Shown piece after piece: positions 1 through 10,773 of a stretch of DNA of 10,773 nucleotides; positions within the stretch are counted from its first letter, which is position 1; each line of letters opens with the position of its first letter. Position numbers and translations under genes: made by a program. The stretch is from the IMG/VR virus record IMGVR_UViG_2681813269_000008. One strand, 5' to 3'. Below the pieces are notes generated by a model. It was given only the letters and a program-made list of their open reading frames with translations, did no database searches and had not been told where the DNA came from. Origin of the DNA: a virus (Duplodnaviria > Heunggongvirae > Uroviricota > Caudoviricetes).

Positions 1-253
1 GTCTGGCGACAGTGGCAAGGTCTTTATTCAGGAGGGCTTTGCATTCTGCTTCGGTATACGTTTTACCGAGCATGATGTCTTTTCCGGTGTGTCCGTGACA
101 TACAGTCCATACACCAATGATATCTTTGTATGGTATGTAGCTGACACCTTCCAGACCATCGTTACCACCTGGGCCAGTGATTAACACAGATGCTATAGCA
201 ACAGCCCCACCACCAATAGCAGCTGCAACAGCCTTGCGTAATGATGGCGACAT
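1..253 (-). CDS. SAR endolysin (phage 21 R-like lysozyme), N-terminal part only; gene continues beyond the window start
   Basis: Minus-strand translation from the ATG at 253-251 is open to position 1: [84 protein letters not shown]. The Gly/Ala-rich weakly hydrophobic N-terminus is a typical signal-anchor-release domain, followed by a lysozyme-like segment. The start overlaps the holin stop (TAATG). Not in the supplied track because it is truncated. Confidence 0.8.
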
Positions 254-468
254 TATTCACCTCTCGCAGCCTTACGCTTGTCTTCTCTTATTTTGAAATA
301 CAGATTTGTCAGATAAGTCAGAAGCCCCAGAAGCAGACTTCCCAGCACACCAATCGCAGCCCACTGTGATGGACTGACCTGATCCAACCACTGCAAAAAC
401 CAGTAGCCGGCACTGCCGGCGGAGGTGCCGTAGGCAATGCCTGTTGATATTTTTTCCATCTGATACAT
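253..468 (-). CDS. Class II pinholin (phage 21 S21-like) with dual-start motif
   Basis: 71-aa [74 protein letters not shown]. It has two predicted transmembrane segments and a charged C-terminus, and closely resembles S21 as I recall it. Met1 and Met4 give the antiholin/holin dual start. It sits directly upstream of the SAR endolysin. Confidence 0.85.
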
Positions 469-502
469 ATCCCGCCCCCCGACAGACCTGTGCTATCGGA
501 AA

Positions 503-534
503 GAAAAAAGGCCATCAGCAAAACTCTGATGGCC
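503..534 (-). terminator. Predicted rho-independent terminator (minus strand) just upstream of the holin gene
   Basis: Perfect 9-bp stem GGCCATCAG (510-518) / CTGATGGCC (526-534) with a 7-nt loop. On the minus strand the hairpin is followed by a U-run (complement of GAAAAAA at 503-509). Confidence 0.5.
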
Positions 535-579
535 TGAATCACCTTTACCAATATTGTATGAAAAAACACGCACGACTAA

Positions 580-608
580 TTGACAATAATTTTCATTTCC
601 ATTAAAAA
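580..608 (+). promoter_or_regulatory. Candidate sigma70 promoter on the plus strand (TTGACA, 17-nt spacer, TAAAAA)
   Basis: Consensus -35 TTGACA at 580-585, a 17-nt spacer, and a weak -10 TAAAAA at 603-608 in an AT-rich context. It points toward the terminator hairpin at 644-710. Prediction only. Confidence 0.25.
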
Positions 609-643
609 AGATCGCGTAGCATTCTTAATTCATGAGGAACTTT

Positions 644-710
644 ACCCGCCAGCAATCTGAGTAGCGAAAGCTGTTCATCCCCAATGTTTTTGCTGGCGGG
701 TCCTTTTTTC
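644..710 (+). terminator. Long-stem hairpin plus T-run; intrinsic terminator and/or 3' end of a candidate small RNA (plus strand)
   Basis: Perfect 11-bp arms CCCGCCAGCAA (645-655) / TTGCTGGCGGG (690-700) enclose a 34-nt loop with a possible internal GAAA tetraloop stem, followed by TTTTTT (704-709). A second weaker hairpin and T-run lies at about 722-757. Confidence 0.45.
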
Positions 711-1148
711 TACGGTCCTCCTCCCCGGAGGGGGGCATTTCATTATTTTTCTAATCGTTACTGGTGAGAAGGCGGAAGAAAAAGCCAGTTCTTCGCCCCT
801 AAATAACAGCATGATTCCAGTCCATGCAAAATCTGATTTCCAGCTCACACATACCGAGCGCTGTACAAAAAACCGCCAGCCAAGGCAGTTAAGAGTGTGT
901 TCCCGGGGTTTGCTTAGAATATTTTGTAAGTTGTCCGAAGAGATATTTACAACACCAGAATGATGAATCATCAGTCCCCTGCCAGAGGTTCACTACGTAA
1001 CCTGACCGACAATGCACCATTCTGGTGCTGAAAAAAGAGCACTGGAACTGCAACAAAACAACATCACAGAACAGGAGATGGTAAGGAGTCAGACATTCCC
1101 ACACAATATTGTGTCAGTGCAAATAACAACCTTCGTCTCAAATCTCGC

Positions 1149-1223
<75 letters not shown>

Positions 1224-1226
1224 ATA

Positions 1227-1302
<76 letters not shown>

Positions 1303-1304
1303 GC

Positions 1305-1381
1305 TGGCCCACCACCGAGGACTCGAACCTCGCACCGTCAACTTAGAAGGTTGATGCTCTATCCGGATGAGCTAGTGGTGG
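1305..1381 (-). tRNA. tRNA-Arg (anticodon TCT)
   Basis: Minus-strand CCACCACTAGCTCATCCGGATAGAGCATCAACCTTCTAAGTTGACGGTGCGAGGTTCGAGTCCTCGGTGGTGGGCCA. Acceptor stem CCACCAC/GTGGTGG, anticodon stem TCAAC/GTTGA, loop CTTCTAA, encoded CCA. Confidence 0.88.
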
Positions 1382-1382
1382 T

Positions 1383-1459
1383 TGGTGGCCCTTGCTGGAC
1401 TTGAACCAGCGACCTGGCGATTATGAGTCGCTCGCTCTGACCAACTGAGCTAAAGGGCC
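1383..1459 (-). tRNA. tRNA with CAT anticodon, most likely tRNA-Ile2 (lysidine-modified), ileX/ileZ-like
   Basis: Minus-strand GGCCCTTTAGCTCAGTTGGTCAGAGCGAGCGACTCATAATCGCCAGGTCGCTGGTTCAAGTCCAGCAAGGGCCACCA. Anticodon loop CTCATAA. The body resembles E. coli tRNA-Ile2 rather than initiator or elongator tRNA-Met, as I recall them. Confidence 0.85.
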
Positions 1460-1547
1460 GGAGGCAGAATAATAACCATATGTCATCACATCTGCAAACT
1501 CATCTGACCACCAGCACGTTTAACGTCCTGTGCCGTTTTTCAGGTAT

Positions 1548-1573
1548 AAAAAAACCCGCTCATCGGCGGGTTT
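1548..1573 (-). terminator. Predicted rho-independent terminator (minus strand) downstream of the ORF6N-like gene
   Basis: Stem CCCGC (1555-1559) / GCGGG (1566-1570) with a 6-nt loop. On the minus strand it is followed by a 7-U run (complement of the A-run at 1548-1554). Confidence 0.6.
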
Positions 1574-1648
1574 AAGCTGTGTGGCGTAGTAACCACTCTT
1601 AACAGGATATTCAACTTTTTACGATCGTAAAGTTTTCGGAAAAAATTT

Positions 1649-2218
1649 TTAAAACCGCATCAACCGCTCCACCAGTTGCTCTTTACGGGCAACGATCCAC
1701 CCGTGTTGCTCCAGATAAAATTTAAACCGTTCCAGAGTACATACCATCGCATCGGCGGGTACCTTTTCCGTGAACTCAACCTGACCGTGTTTATCGAAGT
1801 GGCTCAGTAATGCGCATCCATCATTTTCGATAGATGTGTTTTGTGCCGCTGGTGGCTGTTTCTGGTTGAAATAACAGTCTTCCAGTTTTTCGAACACTTC
1901 CCACGCCTGATCGGTTTCGAGCATTTTGGCGTGACGGGCTGCGCCACGTTCTGTCCAGAGGATGAGGGAGCGAACGTTACGGGCAATTTTCACAGAAACT
2001 CTTAAAGAGTTTTCGTTCTTCAACTCTCGTAACGCATCACCTTCTATCAGGAAAAAATGTTTACCTTCTATAAACCGTTCTTTGTTTCGATTGAAATTGT
2101 TTGTCAAACGCTGGCGCTCTGTTCCGTACAAATCAGCCAGCAGCTCTGTTGTCATGACAGGAAGATGGTTATGCGTAAGTGACGGGAGTTTTTCAATAGA
2201 CGTGCGATTCATAGACAT
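1649..2218 (-). CDS. ORF6N/KilA-N-like phage DNA-binding (antirepressor-like) protein; start uncertain
   Basis: The open frame runs 1649-2410 (253 aa). The conserved region starts near MSMNRTSIEKLPSLTHNHLPVMTTELLADLYGTERQRLTNNFNRNKERFIEGKHFFLIEGDALRELK...WTERGAARHAKMLETDQAWEVFEKL, which resembles the ORF6N domain by recall. An AAAGGA Shine-Dalgarno sits before the ATG pair at 2218/2212. The 64-codon upstream extension has no protein-like character. Confidence 0.6.
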   Translation of the reverse strand: MSMNRTSIEKLPSLTHNHLPVMTTELLADLYGTERQRLTNNFNRNKERFIEGKHFFLIEGDALRELKNENSLRVSVKIARNVRSLILWTERGAARHAKMLETDQAWEVFEKLEDCYFNQKQPPAAQNTSIENDGCALLSHFDKHGQVEFTEKVPADAMVCTLERFKFYLEQHGWIVARKEQLVERLMRF

Positions 2219-2573
2219 GTCCTTTCGAATATTTTGATTTACCCCTTTTGAGAGGGTGACCGGGCGCTCAAAACCGTCGAAAGTCGGCGGGCGTATTTCC
2301 ATTGCTGGTATTGTATTAGCCGCACACCCGGTCATAAACCAAGAATTCTGGACACAAAAAAACCACATGGCTATCGGGTGTGGATACCGCTTTCGAGGTG
2401 TTTTGAGCACCGCGGGGAAATGTAAACTGCAAACCTGAAACTGTCAACACCGTCAGGTTCCAATCATCGGGTGGTGAGACGCACAGGGTTGGAACTACCG
2501 GGAAACCGACCGGCGAGCTTTTCAGCTCCCCCATGCGCCCCACCATAATTCAGATGTGCGCGTGCATACGACA

Positions 2574-2597
2574 ATAAAAAACACGCTCGCGGCGTGT
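2574..2597 (-). terminator. tR'-like intrinsic terminator downstream of the late promoter (minus strand)
   Basis: Minus-strand ACACGC-CGCGA-GCGTGT hairpin (6-bp stem) followed by TTTTTTAT. It lies about 55-80 nt downstream of the predicted PR' start, as in lambdoid late leaders. Confidence 0.55.
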
Positions 2598-2658
2598 GTC
2601 TGTCGCGGTCTCTATCCGGGGTTCCAATCCCGACGCCAGATTTTGCTGGCGCGTGAGG

Positions 2659-2688
2659 AATATAGCCCCGGACAATGTGTCTGGTCAA
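2659..2688 (-). promoter_or_regulatory. PR'-like late promoter immediately downstream of Q
   Basis: Minus-strand TTGACC (-35, plus 2683-2688), 18-nt spacer, TATATT (-10, plus 2659-2664). It begins 5 bp after the Q stop codon, the canonical lambdoid position for PR'. Confidence 0.55.
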
Positions 2689-2692
2689 GCAC

Positions 2693-3079
2693 CTACATAA
2701 TTCGTTCTACGTATCTGTCCATCTCCAGCCGGATATCAAGCATCATCAACATGCCATCAATAACCCCTTCCGCTTTCTGCAGGCGCTTGCCAATACAGGT
2801 ATCCGAACACCCATGTTTCCGTGCCAGACTCATAAAAGTCATTCCACCTACGTAATAATCCACCAGCAAATCGTGCAAATCCTGATTTTTCTTGTTCAAC
2901 CGGGCCATACAGCCACAAATTATCATTGCATCATCATCAGAACACTGAGGGCGTGATTTCACTTTCGACGGAATTAACCCTTTAAAACCAGCAGCGATCG
3001 ACGCCCAGGATACATCTTCATGAGTGTTTGCAGCCCAAGCCCCCCACCGTTCCATAACCTGCTGAATATCACGCGCCAT
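2693..3079 (-). CDS. Late antiterminator Q (phage antitermination Q family, QuuD/phage 82-like)
   Basis: [121 protein letters not shown] closely resembles QuuD-type Q proteins as I recall them. The track ORF extends to 3100, but the ATG at 3079 has a good AGGTGA Shine-Dalgarno and overlaps the rusA stop. Confidence 0.85.
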
Positions 3080-3440
3080 CGTTATCACCTGTGATTTCAT
3101 AAATCTTCACGCCCAGTCGCCCACCAGGAACGAGCTGACCGCGCACAATATTGATTTCATCAAACTGCTCGTCGTCTATGAGTAGTCCGGCATGCGTCAG
3201 CGCATCCAGTGGTGCTTTCAGGATATTGTCCAGGTCACGACGGCGCTTATCCGGTGGCTCTGCAATAATCTTTATCGCCAGCCTTCCGGACAGGTTTAAT
3301 TTCAGCCGCTGCTGGCGAACAATTAGCGTCACATCACGGCGATAACGCTCACCAACTTTTGATACAAAATATGTGCTGCCACGACGTCGCCAGTAAGTAT
3401 TCACCGTCGGCGGATAAGGTAAAATAAACTCATGGCGCAT
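3069..3440 (-). CDS. rusA: Holliday junction resolvase RusA
   Basis: 123 aa: [21 protein letters not shown]...[31 protein letters not shown]...[11 protein letters not shown]. This matches the RusA hallmark motifs (PPS/TxN, DxRRRDLDN, D/E acidic cluster). The start overlaps the upstream stop (TGATG). Confidence 0.9.
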
Positions 3441-3697
3441 CAGCGCAGCACCTCCTGCACCATTTTTTCAAACTTTCCAACTTTGGTTTCCAGCTCTGCC
3501 ACACAATCAACGAGCTCATCCACCGCTTTTTGTGCGCGATGTTTCGCCTGCATCAGTTCCCTGAGCGCTGGCACCATATCCCGACGAATGGCATCTTTTG
3601 TTACACCTGTTTTTTCCAGTTGTTCCGCCTGTCGCAACATTTCCTGCGCGTGTTTACGCAATTGTTCAGAGGTAAAAGTCATTGTCTGGTTGTTCAA
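3440..3697 (-). CDS. Small hypothetical phage protein, predicted coiled-coil, unknown function
   Basis: 85-codon frame between the helicase and rusA. The 5'-most start is TTG, overlapping the helicase stop; an internal ATG lies at 3682. Charged, heptad-like sequence (EQLRKHAQEMLRQAEQLEK...). No family recognised. Confidence 0.5.
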   Translation of the reverse strand: MNNQTMTFTSEQLRKHAQEMLRQAEQLEKTGVTKDAIRRDMVPALRELMQAKHRAQKAVDELVDCVAELETKVGKFEKMVQEVLR

Positions 3698-5085
3698 AAG
3701 AAACGCTCCATCTTACTGCTGTCGGTACGTGTATTGCTGTATCTGCGCGGCTGGGGCTGCCGCATTGGGGTGGAAAGAACCTGTGCGCTTTCCTGGTCCA
3801 CAGGCAGAAAATGTCCGTTATAAAAACGCCGGTAAATCGTCCCCAGAGAACCGTTACGTTGTTTCGTGATATTAATTTCTGCTATGCCTGTAGCCTGTGT
3901 ATCCGGGTTGTACACTTCATCCCTGTAAAGCATCAGAATGATGTCTGCATCCGCCTCTATTTCTCCGGAATTTTTCAGGTCTGAGTTCATGGGACGTTTA
4001 TTGGGTCTGGACTCCACACCGCGGGAGAGCTGGCTCAGCGCAATCAACGGAAAACCACCGGATTTTGCCAGGCCTTTAAGCCCCTTTGAGATTTCACCCA
4101 CGGCAAGGTCATGACGCCCCGTGGTTCGGGTTTTTATCAGCCCGAGATAATCAACCACCACCAGCGCCGTTTCCGGATGTTTAATCAGATGGTGTTTCGT
4201 TGTTGCGCATATCTCATCAATGGTCAGGTTCGCCTGGTCCACCATCCAGATATTGCGCCCGGTCATCCGCCCCACCCCTTGTGAGAAACGCGCCCAGTCT
4301 TCATCTTCAAAGTGAGCCACAGATTTCAGGCGTGATACTGGCATCCCTCCAGCCGCAGACACCATACGTTCACCAATCTGGATGTTCGCCATCTCCATGG
4401 TGAACAGAAGCACACCATGCCCCTGCTCAGTCACCTTGTCGATGATGTCCAGCGCAAGTTCGGTTTTCCCCATCGAAGGACGGGCGGCAATGAATACCAG
4501 GTCTCCGGGCTCCATACCGCCTGTTTTTGCGTCCAGTTCATCAATACCGGTCATCAACGTCCTGGATTTCTCCAGCCCCTGATTCCGGCATTCAACACGC
4601 TCAACCACTTCCGGAAGCACATCATCAATATGTACCGGCTGAATGACGCCCTTTCCTGTCGACAGTGTGACCATCATGTTCTGCGCATCCTTCAGGGCAT
4701 CTTCAGCTGCTTCACAGGTATGCGCATCACGTAATTTCTGCAGCGCCTCATTCAGTGTTTTTTCTGCATCGCGCAGTGCGGCATTGCGCCGCAACGCTGC
4801 AACATAGTGCTCCAGTGAAGACTTCACCCAGGTTTTACGCCCGGTATCAGTAATCACCGGGGCAAGTTCCGGCATCTCATTACACAACAGCACGGGGTCA
4901 ATCACTCCTGAAACACGGGCCTGTCTGCAGATGCCTGTGTAGATATCCCGATACGCTCGTACAGAAAAAATGTCCGCCGGTAGTGTGATCAGAATATCCA
5001 TCACTTCATGATCTGCCCCACGCAGAAAGAATGCGCCAATGACAGCGCCTTCCAGGTCATCATTACGCCAGACTGGTGTTGTCAT
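3694..5085 (-). CDS. Phage replicative DNA helicase, DnaB family
   Basis: DnaB N-terminal-like region ([13 protein letters not shown]...) and RecA-like C-terminal domain with Walker [10 protein letters not shown], Walker B VVVDYLGL and [20 protein letters not shown]. The ATG at 5085 has a GAGGTG Shine-Dalgarno 9 nt upstream. The track ORF reaching 5145 begins at a GTG inside IS-derived sequence and is an artefactual extension. Confidence 0.9.
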
Positions 5086-5140
5086 GCAGCCACACCTCTG
5101 ATACAAGAACGGTAGCTGGGCCAGTTGAACGACAACCAGT

Positions 5141-5255
5141 ATCACTTAACCCATTACTGGCTTGCTGCCGTAGATATTCCCGTGGCGAGCGATAACCCAG
5201 TGCACTATGCGGATGCCATTCGTTATAATGCTCGAACGCCTCTGCAAGGTTCTTT
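5141..5255 (-). mobile_element. IS2-like internal fragment (3' end of the transposase gene) lacking the terminal inverted repeat
   Basis: The minus strand encodes ...[38 protein letters not shown], matching the C-terminus of the IS2 transposase as I recall it. The same sequence recurs at 10675-10773, where it is preceded by the 32-bp IS2-like terminus that is absent here. Confidence 0.6.
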
Positions 5256-5522
5256 AAAGCCGAAGCTGTCAGAACGGTTCTTGAAAATCAACTTTCGATC
5301 AGTGAAGGCGCTTCCCGATTATCTCTTCCTGAAGGCACTTTAGGACAATGGGTTACCGCCGCCAGAAAAGGGCTCGGTACTCCTGGTTCCCGCACGGTGG
5401 CTGAACTGGAATCTGAAATTCTGCAACTGCGTAAGGCGTTAAATGAAGCTCGCCTTGAGCGAGATATATTAAAAAAAGCAACAGCGTATTTTGCACAGGA
5501 GTCGCTGAAAAATACGCGTTAA
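5256..5522 (+). pseudogene. IS3-family orfA, N-terminally truncated (no start codon)
   Basis: Frame reads ...[89 protein letters not shown], a helix-turn-helix plus leucine-zipper OrfA. An in-frame TAA lies just upstream and there is no ATG. Confidence 0.7.
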
Positions 5523-5557
5523 TCGAACAATGGCGACAACAATTTCCCATTGAAGCG

Positions 5558-6376
5558 ATGTGTCAGGTATTTGGTGTATCCAGGAGCGGTTATTACAACT
5601 GGGTACAGCATGAACCCTCAGACAGAAAACAAAGTGATGAGCGGCTAAAACTGGAGATTAAGGTGGCACATATCCGCACTCGCGAAACATATGGAACCCG
5701 GCGGCTCCAGACGGAGCTGGCAGAGAATGGCATCATCGTTGGTCGTGACCGACTGGCACGTCTTCGTAAGGAGCTAAGGCTACGCTGTAAGCAGAAACGC
5801 AAGTTCAGAGCGACTACGAACTCGAACCACAATCTGCCAGTTGCGCCAAATCTGCTGAACCAGACGTTCGCTCCTACAGCACCAAATCAGGTCTGGGTGG
5901 CGGACCTGACGTATGTTGCCACACAGGAGGGATGGTTGTACCTCGCTGGCATCAAAGATGTTTATACGTGCGAAATTGTCGGCTACGCCATGGGAGAGCG
6001 CATGACAAAAGAGCTGACAGGTAAAGCCCTGTTTATGGCGCTCAGGAGCCAGCGCCCACCTGCCGGGCTAATCCACCACTCTGATCGAGGTTCACAGTAC
6101 TGCGCATACGATTACCGGGTCATACAGGAGCAGTCTGGTCTGAAAACATCAATGTCGCGTAAAGGTAACTGTTACGACAACGCTCCGATGGAAAGCTTCT
6201 GGGGAACGCTGAAAAATGAGAGCCTGAGCCACTATCGTTTTAATAACCGGGATGAAGCCATCTCAGTAATACGGGAATACATTGAGATTTTCTACAATCG
6301 TCAGCGTCGTCACTCTCGTCTGGGGAATATCTCCCCGGCAGCCTTCAGGGAAAAATATCATCAGATGGCTGCTTAA
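5558..6376 (+). CDS. IS3-family transposase OrfB (DDE integrase catalytic domain)
   Basis: 272 aa with the DDE triad context WVADLTY, HHSDRGSQY and CYDNAPMESFWGTLK. The frame is open from the slippery site at 5471, consistent with an OrfAB frameshift fusion. Because orfA is truncated, a functional fusion is unlikely. Confidence 0.85.
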   Translation: MCQVFGVSRSGYYNWVQHEPSDRKQSDERLKLEIKVAHIRTRETYGTRRLQTELAENGIIVGRDRLARLRKELRLRCKQKRKFRATTNSNHNLPVAPNLLNQTFAPTAPNQVWVADLTYVATQEGWLYLAGIKDVYTCEIVGYAMGERMTKELTGKALFMALRSQRPPAGLIHHSDRGSQYCAYDYRVIQEQSGLKTSMSRKGNCYDNAPMESFWGTLKNESLSHYRFNNRDEAISVIREYIEIFYNRQRRHSRLGNISPAAFREKYHQMAA

Positions 6377-6469
6377 AAAAAGAACAAATGGTAGTGTCCG
6401 CTATTGCCAGTACACCTCACACTCTATCCAACAAACCACCCACAGTTAATCGGAATAAAAGCAGAGTGC

Positions 6470-6595
6470 TTATGAATGATCGCACGCCCGAAGGTTAGTA
6501 TTTCTGCACAGCAATTTTGCAAAAAAAGGCGATCATTCATAACTTAAACGTCTTTCAGTCACTCCGGGATTTCCCATCATCGCAGACTGAAAGAC
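6470..6595. repeat. Two adjacent perfect inverted repeats (14-bp arms and 11-bp arms) in the copy-2 flank
   Basis: TTATGAATGATCGC (6470-6483) pairs with GCGATCATTCATAA (6529-6542) across a 45-nt spacer. GTCTTTCAGTC (6550-6560) pairs with GACTGAAAGAC (6585-6595) across a 24-nt spacer. The second ends 6 bp from the tRNA-Gly 3' end. Confidence 0.6.
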
Positions 6596-6601
6596 TCTGA
6601 C

Positions 6602-6676
<75 letters not shown>

Positions 6677-6679
6677 ATA

Positions 6680-6755
<76 letters not shown>

Positions 6756-6757
6756 GC

Positions 6758-6834
6758 TGGCCCACCACCGAGGACTCGAACCTCGCACCGTCAACTTAGA
6801 AGGTTGATGCTCTATCCGGATGAGCTAGTGGTGG
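6758..6834 (-). tRNA. tRNA-Arg (anticodon TCT), copy 2
   Basis: Identical to 1305-1381 (offset 5453). Confidence 0.88.
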
Positions 6835-6835
6835 T

Positions 6836-6912
6836 TGGTGGCCCTTGCTGGACTTGAACCAGCGACCTGGCGATTATGAGTCGCTCGCTCTGACCAACTG
6901 AGCTAAAGGGCC
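6836..6912 (-). tRNA. tRNA-Ile2-like (anticodon CAT), copy 2
   Basis: Identical to 1383-1459 (offset 5453). Confidence 0.85.
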
Positions 6913-7000
6913 GGAGGCAGAATAATAACCATATGTCATCACATCTGCAAACTCATCTGACCACCAGCACGTTTAACGTCCTGTGCCGTTTTTCAGGTAT

Positions 7001-7026
7001 AAAAAAACCCGCTCATCGGCGGGTTT
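7001..7026 (-). terminator. Predicted rho-independent terminator, copy 2
   Basis: Identical to 1548-1573 (offset 5453). Confidence 0.6.
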
Positions 7027-7101
7027 AAGCTGTGTGGCGTAGTAACCACTCTTAACAGGATATTCAACTTTTTACGATCGTAAAGTTTTCGGAAAAAATT
7101 T

Positions 7102-7671
7102 TTAAAACCGCATCAACCGCTCCACCAGTTGCTCTTTACGGGCAACGATCCACCCGTGTTGCTCCAGATAAAATTTAAACCGTTCCAGAGTACATACCAT
7201 CGCATCGGCGGGTACCTTTTCCGTGAACTCAACCTGACCGTGTTTATCGAAGTGGCTCAGTAATGCGCATCCATCATTTTCGATAGATGTGTTTTGTGCC
7301 GCTGGTGGCTGTTTCTGGTTGAAATAACAGTCTTCCAGTTTTTCGAACACTTCCCACGCCTGATCGGTTTCGAGCATTTTGGCGTGACGGGCTGCGCCAC
7401 GTTCTGTCCAGAGGATGAGGGAGCGAACGTTACGGGCAATTTTCACAGAAACTCTTAAAGAGTTTTCGTTCTTCAACTCTCGTAACGCATCACCTTCTAT
7501 CAGGAAAAAATGTTTACCTTCTATAAACCGTTCTTTGTTTCGATTGAAATTGTTTGTCAAACGCTGGCGCTCTGTTCCGTACAAATCAGCCAGCAGCTCT
7601 GTTGTCATGACAGGAAGATGGTTATGCGTAAGTGACGGGAGTTTTTCAATAGACGTGCGATTCATAGACAT
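7102..7671 (-). CDS. ORF6N/KilA-N-like phage DNA-binding (antirepressor-like) protein, copy 2
   Basis: Identical to 1649-2218; the track ORF 7102-7863 is the same extended frame. Confidence 0.6.
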   Translation of the reverse strand: MSMNRTSIEKLPSLTHNHLPVMTTELLADLYGTERQRLTNNFNRNKERFIEGKHFFLIEGDALRELKNENSLRVSVKIARNVRSLILWTERGAARHAKMLETDQAWEVFEKLEDCYFNQKQPPAAQNTSIENDGCALLSHFDKHGQVEFTEKVPADAMVCTLERFKFYLEQHGWIVARKEQLVERLMRF

Positions 7672-8026
7672 GTCCTTTCGAATATTTTGATTTACCCCTT
7701 TTGAGAGGGTGACCGGGCGCTCAAAACCGTCGAAAGTCGGCGGGCGTATTTCCATTGCTGGTATTGTATTAGCCGCACACCCGGTCATAAACCAAGAATT
7801 CTGGACACAAAAAAACCACATGGCTATCGGGTGTGGATACCGCTTTCGAGGTGTTTTGAGCACCGCGGGGAAATGTAAACTGCAAACCTGAAACTGTCAA
7901 CACCGTCAGGTTCCAATCATCGGGTGGTGAGACGCACAGGGTTGGAACTACCGGGAAACCGACCGGCGAGCTTTTCAGCTCCCCCATGCGCCCCACCATA
8001 ATTCAGATGTGCGCGTGCATACGACA

Positions 8027-8050
8027 ATAAAAAACACGCTCGCGGCGTGT
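8027..8050 (-). terminator. tR'-like intrinsic terminator, copy 2
   Basis: Identical to 2574-2597 (offset 5453). Confidence 0.55.
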
Positions 8051-8111
8051 GTCTGTCGCGGTCTCTATCCGGGGTTCCAATCCCGACGCCAGATTTTGCT
8101 GGCGCGTGAGG

Positions 8112-8141
8112 AATATAGCCCCGGACAATGTGTCTGGTCAA
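8112..8141 (-). promoter_or_regulatory. PR'-like late promoter, copy 2
   Basis: Identical to 2659-2688 (offset 5453). Confidence 0.55.
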
Positions 8142-8145
8142 GCAC

Positions 8146-8532
8146 CTACATAATTCGTTCTACGTATCTGTCCATCTCCAGCCGGATATCAAGCATCATC
8201 AACATGCCATCAATAACCCCTTCCGCTTTCTGCAGGCGCTTGCCAATACAGGTATCCGAACACCCATGTTTCCGTGCCAGACTCATAAAAGTCATTCCAC
8301 CTACGTAATAATCCACCAGCAAATCGTGCAAATCCTGATTTTTCTTGTTCAACCGGGCCATACAGCCACAAATTATCATTGCATCATCATCAGAACACTG
8401 AGGGCGTGATTTCACTTTCGACGGAATTAACCCTTTAAAACCAGCAGCGATCGACGCCCAGGATACATCTTCATGAGTGTTTGCAGCCCAAGCCCCCCAC
8501 CGTTCCATAACCTGCTGAATATCACGCGCCAT
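8146..8532 (-). CDS. Late antiterminator Q, copy 2
   Basis: Identical to 2693-3079; track ORF 8146-8553. Confidence 0.85.
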
Positions 8533-8893
8533 CGTTATCACCTGTGATTTCATAAATCTTCACGCCCAGTCGCCCACCAGGAACGAGCTGACCGCGCACA
8601 ATATTGATTTCATCAAACTGCTCGTCGTCTATGAGTAGTCCGGCATGCGTCAGCGCATCCAGTGGTGCTTTCAGGATATTGTCCAGGTCACGACGGCGCT
8701 TATCCGGTGGCTCTGCAATAATCTTTATCGCCAGCCTTCCGGACAGGTTTAATTTCAGCCGCTGCTGGCGAACAATTAGCGTCACATCACGGCGATAACG
8801 CTCACCAACTTTTGATACAAAATATGTGCTGCCACGACGTCGCCAGTAAGTATTCACCGTCGGCGGATAAGGTAAAATAAACTCATGGCGCAT
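8522..8893 (-). CDS. rusA: Holliday junction resolvase RusA, copy 2
   Basis: Identical to 3069-3440. Confidence 0.9.
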
Positions 8894-9150
8894 CAGCGCA
8901 GCACCTCCTGCACCATTTTTTCAAACTTTCCAACTTTGGTTTCCAGCTCTGCCACACAATCAACGAGCTCATCCACCGCTTTTTGTGCGCGATGTTTCGC
9001 CTGCATCAGTTCCCTGAGCGCTGGCACCATATCCCGACGAATGGCATCTTTTGTTACACCTGTTTTTTCCAGTTGTTCCGCCTGTCGCAACATTTCCTGC
9101 GCGTGTTTACGCAATTGTTCAGAGGTAAAAGTCATTGTCTGGTTGTTCAA
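8893..9150 (-). CDS. Small hypothetical coiled-coil phage protein, copy 2
   Basis: Identical to 3440-3697. Confidence 0.5.
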   Translation of the reverse strand: MNNQTMTFTSEQLRKHAQEMLRQAEQLEKTGVTKDAIRRDMVPALRELMQAKHRAQKAVDELVDCVAELETKVGKFEKMVQEVLR

Positions 9151-10538
9151 AAGAAACGCTCCATCTTACTGCTGTCGGTACGTGTATTGCTGTATCTGCG
9201 CGGCTGGGGCTGCCGCATTGGGGTGGAAAGAACCTGTGCGCTTTCCTGGTCCACAGGCAGAAAATGTCCGTTATAAAAACGCCGGTAAATCGTCCCCAGA
9301 GAACCGTTACGTTGTTTCGTGATATTAATTTCTGCTATGCCTGTAGCCTGTGTATCCGGGTTGTACACTTCATCCCTGTAAAGCATCAGAATGATGTCTG
9401 CATCCGCCTCTATTTCTCCGGAATTTTTCAGGTCTGAGTTCATGGGACGTTTATTGGGTCTGGACTCCACACCGCGGGAGAGCTGGCTCAGCGCAATCAA
9501 CGGAAAACCACCGGATTTTGCCAGGCCTTTAAGCCCCTTTGAGATTTCACCCACGGCAAGGTCATGACGCCCCGTGGTTCGGGTTTTTATCAGCCCGAGA
9601 TAATCAACCACCACCAGCGCCGTTTCCGGATGTTTAATCAGATGGTGTTTCGTTGTTGCGCATATCTCATCAATGGTCAGGTTCGCCTGGTCCACCATCC
9701 AGATATTGCGCCCGGTCATCCGCCCCACCCCTTGTGAGAAACGCGCCCAGTCTTCATCTTCAAAGTGAGCCACAGATTTCAGGCGTGATACTGGCATCCC
9801 TCCAGCCGCAGACACCATACGTTCACCAATCTGGATGTTCGCCATCTCCATGGTGAACAGAAGCACACCATGCCCCTGCTCAGTCACCTTGTCGATGATG
9901 TCCAGCGCAAGTTCGGTTTTCCCCATCGAAGGACGGGCGGCAATGAATACCAGGTCTCCGGGCTCCATACCGCCTGTTTTTGCGTCCAGTTCATCAATAC
10001 CGGTCATCAACGTCCTGGATTTCTCCAGCCCCTGATTCCGGCATTCAACACGCTCAACCACTTCCGGAAGCACATCATCAATATGTACCGGCTGAATGAC
10101 GCCCTTTCCTGTCGACAGTGTGACCATCATGTTCTGCGCATCCTTCAGGGCATCTTCAGCTGCTTCACAGGTATGCGCATCACGTAATTTCTGCAGCGCC
10201 TCATTCAGTGTTTTTTCTGCATCGCGCAGTGCGGCATTGCGCCGCAACGCTGCAACATAGTGCTCCAGTGAAGACTTCACCCAGGTTTTACGCCCGGTAT
10301 CAGTAATCACCGGGGCAAGTTCCGGCATCTCATTACACAACAGCACGGGGTCAATCACTCCTGAAACACGGGCCTGTCTGCAGATGCCTGTGTAGATATC
10401 CCGATACGCTCGTACAGAAAAAATGTCCGCCGGTAGTGTGATCAGAATATCCATCACTTCATGATCTGCCCCACGCAGAAAGAATGCGCCAATGACAGCG
10501 CCTTCCAGGTCATCATTACGCCAGACTGGTGTTGTCAT
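9147..10538 (-). CDS. Phage replicative DNA helicase, DnaB family, copy 2
   Basis: Identical to 3694-5085. The 510-aa track ORF (to 10679) is an artefactual in-frame extension across 49 bp of flank and the IS2-like terminus. Confidence 0.9.
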   Translation of the reverse strand: MTTPVWRNDDLEGAVIGAFFLRGADHEVMDILITLPADIFSVRAYRDIYTGICRQARVSGVIDPVLLCNEMPELAPVITDTGRKTWVKSSLEHYVAALRRNAALRDAEKTLNEALQKLRDAHTCEAAEDALKDAQNMMVTLSTGKGVIQPVHIDDVLPEVVERVECRNQGLEKSRTLMTGIDELDAKTGGMEPGDLVFIAARPSMGKTELALDIIDKVTEQGHGVLLFTMEMANIQIGERMVSAAGGMPVSRLKSVAHFEDEDWARFSQGVGRMTGRNIWMVDQANLTIDEICATTKHHLIKHPETALVVVDYLGLIKTRTTGRHDLAVGEISKGLKGLAKSGGFPLIALSQLSRGVESRPNKRPMNSDLKNSGEIEADADIILMLYRDEVYNPDTQATGIAEINITKQRNGSLGTIYRRFYNGHFLPVDQESAQVLSTPMRQPQPRRYSNTRTDSSKMERFF

Positions 10539-10642
10539 GCAGCCACACCTCTGATACAAGAACGGTAGCTGGGCCAGTTGAACGACAACCAGTTGCGCCC
10601 CCCGTCTGTGATCCTGTCGGCAATGCGGGGGCTGATGAACGC
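10535..10642 (-). pseudogene. 3' remnant of the gene upstream of the helicase (probable replication initiator or helicase loader), cut by the IS2-like insertion
   Basis: Minus-strand frame ...[35 protein letters not shown] ends in a TGA that overlaps the helicase ATG (ATGA coupling). The frame is open right up to the IS2-like terminus at 10643. No family assignment is possible from 35 codons. Confidence 0.35.
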
Positions 10643-10773
10643 TGGATTTGCCCCTATATTTCCAGACACCTGTTATCACTTAACCCATTACTGGCTTGCT
10701 GCCGTAGATATTCCCGTGGCGAGCGATAACCCAGTGCACTATGCGGATGCCATTCGTTATAATGCTCGAACGC
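10643..10773 (-). mobile_element. IS2-like element, right terminus and 3' end of the transposase gene; runs off the window end
   Basis: TGGATTTGCCCCTATATTTCCAGACACCTGTTATCACTTAACCCATTAC... matches the reverse complement of the IS2 right inverted repeat as I recall it, with about one mismatch. The minus strand encodes the transposase C-terminus ...[10 protein letters not shown]. Confidence 0.6.

Follow-up and report, generated by a model that had tools for sequence, protein, structure and literature searches.

A segment of 3993 bp stands twice, in the same orientation, in the window (the whole stretch of 10,773 nucleotides that was analysed), and its left copy has lost 81 bp that, in the right copy, lead from the end of the segment into the right end of an IS2 element. 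We explain this difference as a genuine deletion in the left copy, without function, in a locus whose ancestral order was helicase gene, the last 35 codons of a DnaC-like gene and the IS2 right end, and we put the probability of this explanation as a whole at about 80%. The scar is an ordinary decay product in the IS-rich genome of an enterobacterium, within a defective prophage. As a strain-specific structural variant of such a prophage, it documents one more route of decay in IS-rich Shigella-type genomes.

The repeated segment and its 81-bp gap

The window opens with flank A (1-1147, minus strand), which comparison with Shigella-type reference loci identifies as DNA from the lysis side of phi1, the resident prophage remnant; it holds a holin gene (253-468; Pfam PF04971) and adjoins a tRNA cluster in standard Shigella-type genomes. 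Copy 1 of the repeat follows (1148-5140, minus strand), recognised by self-BLAST, with its Pfam labels taken from the identical genes of the reference loci. All of its genes lie on the minus strand: four tRNA genes, Gly, Thr, Arg and Met(CAT), at 1149-1459, ORF6N at 1649-2212, a Q antiterminator at 2693-3079, RusA at 3069-3440, an 85-aa ORF at 3440-3697, a DnaB-type helicase of 463 aa at 3694-5085, and the last 18 codons (56 nt) of a DnaC-like gene at 5085-5140, nucleotide 5085 being common to this remnant and the helicase start. The whole stretch from 1 to 5140 is 100% identical to, and collinear with, the loci L003, L005, L006, L009, L010 and L012. Copy 2 (6601-10593, minus strand, 3993 bp) carries the genes of copy 1 shifted by 5453 bp, which places its helicase gene at 9147-10538 on the minus strand.

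Self-BLAST of the window aligned 1148-5140 with 6601-10593 at 100% identity over 3993 bp, with an offset of 5453, and direct reading of the sequence showed that 10675-10773 equals 5141-5239 at 99 of 99 positions, with an offset of 5534. The two offsets differ by 81, and when both copies were aligned by MAFFT with a reference chromosome, a single, clean gap of 81 columns appeared in copy 1. The bases missing from copy 1 are 10594-10674 or, equivalently, 10593-10673, an ambiguity that arises because T5140 matches both T10593 and T10674. This T is the sole base common to the two end points, so that the microhomology at the deletion scar J1 (5140/5141), where the DnaC-like remnant is joined to IS2 nucleotide 33, amounts to 1 nt; around the end points, the neighbouring 11 nt agree at 6 positions. 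The missing stretch is made of 49 bp of the 3' region of the DnaC-like gene (10594-10642) and, from the right inverted repeat (IRR) of IS2, its outer 32 bp (10643-10674). Each of these two parts occurs once in the window even when up to 3 mismatches are allowed, which means that copy 1 does not carry the 81 bp at a different offset. The gap is a deterministic result of the alignment and not a chance pattern. A preliminary description of this DNA had reported the absence of the same 81 bp from copy 1 and a single T of microhomology at 5140/5141, and had named a pairwise alignment of the copies as the way to check them; both observations hold, the alignment having returned one 81-bp gap.

Ancestral order and origin of the pieces

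In copy 2 the helicase start overlaps the stop of the gene upstream of it as ATGA, and from the helicase ATG to position 10642 there are 105 nt, which are the last 35 codons of a gene for a DnaC/IstB-like loader. An ATP-binding (IstB/DnaC-like) protein of 292 aa from an E. coli prophage has a C-terminus identical to the 35-aa remnant at 34 of 35 residues, and in E. coli prophages the 49 bp at 10594-10642 go on as DnaC-like coding DNA; the matches to E. coli and to phage relatives end exactly at 10642. These 49 bp had been presented as unique phage DNA; they are indeed phage DNA, but not anonymous, belonging as they do to this gene remnant.

The right end of an IS2 isoform that runs off the window (10643-10773, plus strand) has its outermost base at position 10643, as seen by comparison with the reverse complement of the annotated right end of K-12 IS2A, with which it agrees at 124 of 131 positions; the earlier attribution of 10643-10674 to an IS2 terminus is thereby borne out. 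The right inverted repeat of IS2 is 41 bp long, and in step I of IS2 transposition it alone acts as the donor end (PMC3299598). In the window the 41-bp IRR, which starts with 5'-TGGATTTGCC, lies at 10643-10683, matches that of K-12 IS2A at 40 of 41 positions and has its outermost base at the junction with host DNA. The deletion takes nucleotides 1-32 of the 41, and the inner 9 bp (nucleotides 33-41) are kept in copy 1. The preliminary description was thus right that the tip of IS2 is among the lost 81 bp, but not that the whole terminal repeat is gone, 32 of its 41 bp having been removed.

The window itself holds just 131 bp of the right-hand IS2 copy. In L005, a reference chromosome identical to the window, the full element measures 1331 bp and aligns without gaps to IS2A at 97.6% identity, and orfA and orfB of the reference-locus IS2 carry HTH_Tnp_1 and rve domains. 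The L005 element (8566-9896) is flanked by AACGC at its IRR end and by GCAAC at its left (IRL) end, and hence lacks a 5-bp target duplication. The DNA that follows past the element bears no relation to the DnaC-like gene, and the absent duplication fits with this DNA not being the rest of that gene. As judged from these flanks, the segment-adjacent IS2 marks an older rearrangement or deletion and not a simple insertion. The 5-bp target duplication for which the preliminary description suggested looking at the other IS2 end is therefore absent from the reference genomes, where AACGC faces GCAAC.

The piece of IS2 left in copy 1 is a fragment of 115 bp (5141-5255, plus strand) that corresponds to nucleotides 33-147 from the right (IRR) end and is 100% identical to the segment-adjacent IS2 of the reference loci. 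Its identity is complete with 17 copies, namely all 16 segment-adjacent copies fetched and one copy on an E. coli chicken plasmid (L013). Twelve IS2 copies from other places, among them K-12 IS2A and additional copies from these same chromosomes, show 7 mismatches over 131 positions. Because of this isoform match, the copy-1 piece derives from the neighbouring IS2, which supports a loss from a once-complete arrangement of segment, 49 bp and IS2. Compared with the IS2 of E. coli K-12 and Shigella, which belongs to the IS3 family, the element in the window is alike in its first base, in 40 of 41 bases of the IRR and in 124 of 131 positions overall. It differs in the 7 positions of the first 131 bp that set the segment isoform apart from other copies, in the reduction of the copy-1 piece to a 115-bp internal fragment without ends, and in the lack of a 5-bp target duplication in the reference loci. 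The segment-adjacent IS2 (10643-10773 here, 20986-21116 in L003) is an isoform distinct both from K-12 IS2A and from the IS2 copies elsewhere in the same chromosomes.

Beyond nucleotide 147 the copy-1 fragment is replaced by IS600, and it is left without intact inverted repeats and without the transposase genes. That it cannot transpose, as had been proposed, is trivially so in a piece of 115 bp cut on both sides, at J1 and at the joint with IS600 (J2). No promoter or terminator was found by scans around the two junctions, and for this reason we do not argue for the loss of an outward promoter derived from IS2.

The reference loci were obtained by exact-protein look-ups, and HE616528.1, which we take to be Shigella sonnei 53G, was among the chromosomes returned. 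Look-ups with the helicase, ORF6N and holin proteins gave single-copy arrangements only. In ten chromosomes the segment is present in a single copy, and the identity is 99.7-100% to window 1-5140 and 99.98-100% to 6601-10773, both values being 100% in six of the ten (L003, L005, L006, L009, L010 and L012). The order at this single-copy locus is lysis genes, tRNA cluster, segment, 49 bp and full IS2. The phage/IS2 junction was absent from complete E. coli genomes. Among the 77 loci fetched, the intact junction between the 49 bp and IS2 was present in 27, which are of the Shigella type, and J1 in none; because of this distribution we consider copy 2 to be the older form and copy 1 the deleted one. 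Read from these sequences, copy 2 represents the ancestral state and copy 1 carries the deletion. The claim that IS2 was in place before the duplication is well supported, as all 27 loci have this junction intact and in single copy.

The joint between the copies and the second prophage type

Between the two copies lies an IS600 without its first 100 bp, a stretch that comprises the left inverted repeat and the beginning of orfA (5256-6419, plus strand, by comparison with the annotated IS600 of L001). Of IS600, an IS3-family element of 1264 bp with TGAGGTAG... ends and a 3-bp target duplication, the window holds nucleotides 101-1264 at 99.7% identity to the L001 element, for which RefSeq gives the label 'IS3-like element IS600 family transposase'. 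Its left end is gone, its orfB is intact at 5558-6376 and its right end is intact at 6419. At J2 (5255/5256), 115 bp from J1, IS2 nucleotide 147 is joined to IS600 nucleotide 101 without microhomology. A 3-nt microhomology, TTT, was considered for this joint and rejected, since all 42 IS600 copies fetched have TTC there, reading GAGTTC|AAAGCC at the J2 point. J2 is the true novel joint of the duplication.

The 181 bp that follow the IS600 (6420-6600) come from a second prophage type, phi2. By their identity to E. coli genomes they are its native spacer between holin and tRNA genes, with a genuine IS600 insertion site at the left edge: many E. coli genomes that carry this other prophage type have them at 100% identity, directly adjoining tRNA-Gly. 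The IMG/VR contig L029 has a full IS600 at exactly this left-edge site, with a 3-bp target duplication CAC, and in E. coli VL40 the site is uninterrupted. The junction J3 of the 6420-6600 piece was found in five IMG/VR contigs.

With the repeated segment, phi2 shares only the 412-bp tRNA cluster (1148-1559 in copy 1), after which it diverges. On its left the repeat is bounded exactly by this cluster (1148-1559 and 6601-7012; Gly-TCC, Thr-TGT, Arg-TCT and Met/Ile-CAT). When its flanks are combined, flank A or IS600 with the 181 bp on the left and the repeated segment or a different Q region on the right, all four combinations exist in public contigs, and the reciprocal pair of flanks is held by one genome (L028 and L039). 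The four combinations and the reciprocal pair thus identify the tRNA cluster as a point of homologous exchange between prophage types, and it acts as a recombination joint between them. The copy-2 arrangement (IS600, 181 bp, segment, 49 bp and IS2) exists alone in L027 and L028.

The duplication is not a simple tandem one, as the left flanks of the two copies differ (1-1147 as against IS600 and 6420-6600) and the joint contains two illegitimate junctions together with phi2 DNA. Through J2, the window connects a standard copy with a recombinant copy of this kind. Known IS-flanked tandem duplications that arise by unequal crossing-over are alike in having two direct copies, here of 4 kb, with IS material between them, but differ in that the joint here consists of two truncated, unrelated IS pieces joined illegitimately, next to left flanks that are unlike. 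No phi2 was found within 10 kb of the resident prophage in the reference chromosomes. A placement of phi2 just past the IS4/IS600 beside the resident prophage was also considered and found no support, since L079 and L080 enter chromosomal genes there. A plasmid, H46, with an IS2 close to an IS600 was considered as well, but its arrangement is different.

Two further observations concern these elements. Tandem prophage remnants able to undergo unequal exchange occur in relatives: in L049 (2819-12762), two related lambdoid remnants lie in the same orientation about 4 kb apart, with IS600 between them. The tRNA gene at 1383-1459 and 6836-6912 is called Met (CAT) by ARAGORN, and its E. coli prophage homologue is tRNA-Ile in RefSeq; it is probably a lysidine-modified Ile2 tRNA.

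Formation of the scar

The sequences establish the deletion, its exact ends, the ancestral order and where each piece came from, and the anatomy of the junctions suggests how the joining may have taken place. The ancestral locus led from the helicase gene through the last 35 codons of the DnaC-like gene to the IS2 right end, as copy 2 does. Homologous exchange within the 412-bp tRNA cluster would have linked IS600 and its 181-bp flank to the repeated segment. A 5.45-kb duplication would have arisen, with the novel joint J2 fusing IS2 nucleotide 147 to nucleotide 101 of the IS600 of the second lambdoid prophage type; candidate routes to this joint are unequal exchange through the tRNA cluster after which the interval collapsed, a fragment that circularised and then integrated, or serial template switching. 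In the left copy, breakage and rejoining would have removed 49 bp of phage DNA and the outer 32 of the 41 bp of the IRR, with a dead IS2 fragment of 115 bp as the outcome. The rejoining itself may have been illegitimate end joining or a replication strand switch on the single T. Slipped-strand deletion between short direct repeats would require a repeat of several bp and only 1 nt (T) is shared; one shared base is too little for classical slipped mispairing, and the junction looks like end joining or a strand switch.

The junctions, judged from their sequence, resemble those of alternative end joining in E. coli. Chayot et al. 2010 are said to have described this process as RecA-independent, with 0-5 nt of microhomology after limited resection. 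Short deletions that cross into the end of an IS with tiny junction homology are also seen with IS629 and IEE and in the loss of ISApl1 from Tn6330 (bioRxiv 10.1101/2023.06.07.543989); those cases differ in removing about the whole IS with homologies of 2-4 bp, as against 32 bp of IS and 49 bp of flank here, with 1 nt shared.

The explanation that we prefer, an ancestral copy 2 and a loss from copy 1, meets difficulties. The two prophage regions are not adjacent in the reference genomes, and J1 and J2 were found in no collection searched, so that the structure receives no independent support. Exact patterns for J1 and J2 had no match in GTDB species representatives, JGI metagenomes or IMG/VR, and neither junction is present in the 77 fetched loci. 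With the junction region as BLAST query, none of 5,426 complete E. coli genomes had a place that covered both sides, and the junction-spanning ORFs (72, 39, 55, 36, 38, 33, 35 and 483 aa) are absent from a collection of 15 billion proteins. An intermediate in which J2 is accompanied by an intact IRR, from which the order of duplication and deletion could be read, was likewise not found in the collections searched. It is plausible that the deletion came after the duplication, and we lean slightly towards this over its having been part of the same event.

The alternative in which J1 and J2 were made together in one complex event, through a series of template switches or through end joining with the 115 bp of IS2 caught as filler, would dispense with a duplicated intermediate carrying an intact orphan IRR. 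The two junctions lie so close together, both have 0-1 nt of microhomology, and neither has been found alone in any collection; nothing direct speaks against such an event. The absence of intermediates is weak evidence, however, because the variant itself was found nowhere else, and we hold a single event to be a real possibility, although not the one that we would choose.

A second alternative keeps the deletion in the left copy but assigns its cause to transposase. The orphan IRR would have been nicked at its tip by the transposase of the intact IS2 about 5.5 kb away, and the break would have been resected on both sides and rejoined; or copy-out replication primed from the flank would have switched strands. 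The deletion does span the exact cleavage site, reaching 49 bp outward and 32 bp inward, in a repeat that serves as the exclusive donor end in step I (PMC3299598), and microhomology deletions into IS ends have been described for elements of the copy-out-paste-in kind (bioRxiv 10.1101/2023.06.07.543989). A random 81-bp deletion in dispensable DNA might nevertheless span the tip by chance, and the remainder of the right-hand IS2 is outside the window. A nick made by transposase, or a copy-out strand switch, is something that we infer, and we think it rather unlikely to lie behind the scar; if it were shown, the scar would be a small example from nature of the way in which orphan IS ends are put out of action. 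Similarly doubtful is the broader proposal that the scar is the trace of an orphan IS2 donor end having been disarmed, in which the lone IRR and the IRL of the downstream intact IS2 would have bracketed a mobilisable unit of about 6.8 kb until the tip was cleaved, end-joined and erased, or that J1 and J2 are together the footprint of one multi-step template switch that linked two prophages.

The structure of the window is known from one source only, and the duplication and its odd joints might be an artefact of assembly or consensus, absent from the organism. In favour of this are the uniqueness of the structure among everything searched, the difficulty of assembling an exact repeat of 4 kb, and the existence of public contigs of the region that are clearly stitched, with N at their joins (L026 and L034). 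The window, in contrast, is without N, and mis-joins in an assembly graph require shared k-mers, of which there is no sign at J1, with 1 base shared, or at J2, with 0; nor would an artefact excise exactly 81 bp inside unique sequence. Since the window has no N and the joints share no k-mers, we rate an artefact as unlikely, and indeed very improbable. The last alternative, that copy 1 is ancestral and that the 81 bp were inserted into copy 2, has nothing in its favour beyond the bare indel and is refuted by the contiguity of the 49 bp with coding DNA in E. coli prophages and of the 32 bp with IS2 in K-12, as well as by the long form in 27 loci.

The two stitched IMG/VR contigs deserve mention in their own right. 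In L026 (at 3687 and 4113) and in L034, a single N stands exactly at the odd joints, between pieces that overlap, which marks them as stitched scaffolds and their joints as not biological. L026 had been taken as a candidate for a second illegitimate joint between flank A and IS600 and was discarded on account of the N at its joints.

Further IS events strike the helicase gene in other chromosomes of the same lineage, so that this locus has been struck repeatedly. An IS600 cuts the helicase of L077 (2861-5519) into pieces of 92 and 387 aa; L073 has a reverse-strand IS600 (2685-3841) upstream and is without a helicase gene call; and in L068 no gene is called from the IS2, which ends at 2745, to position 5516.
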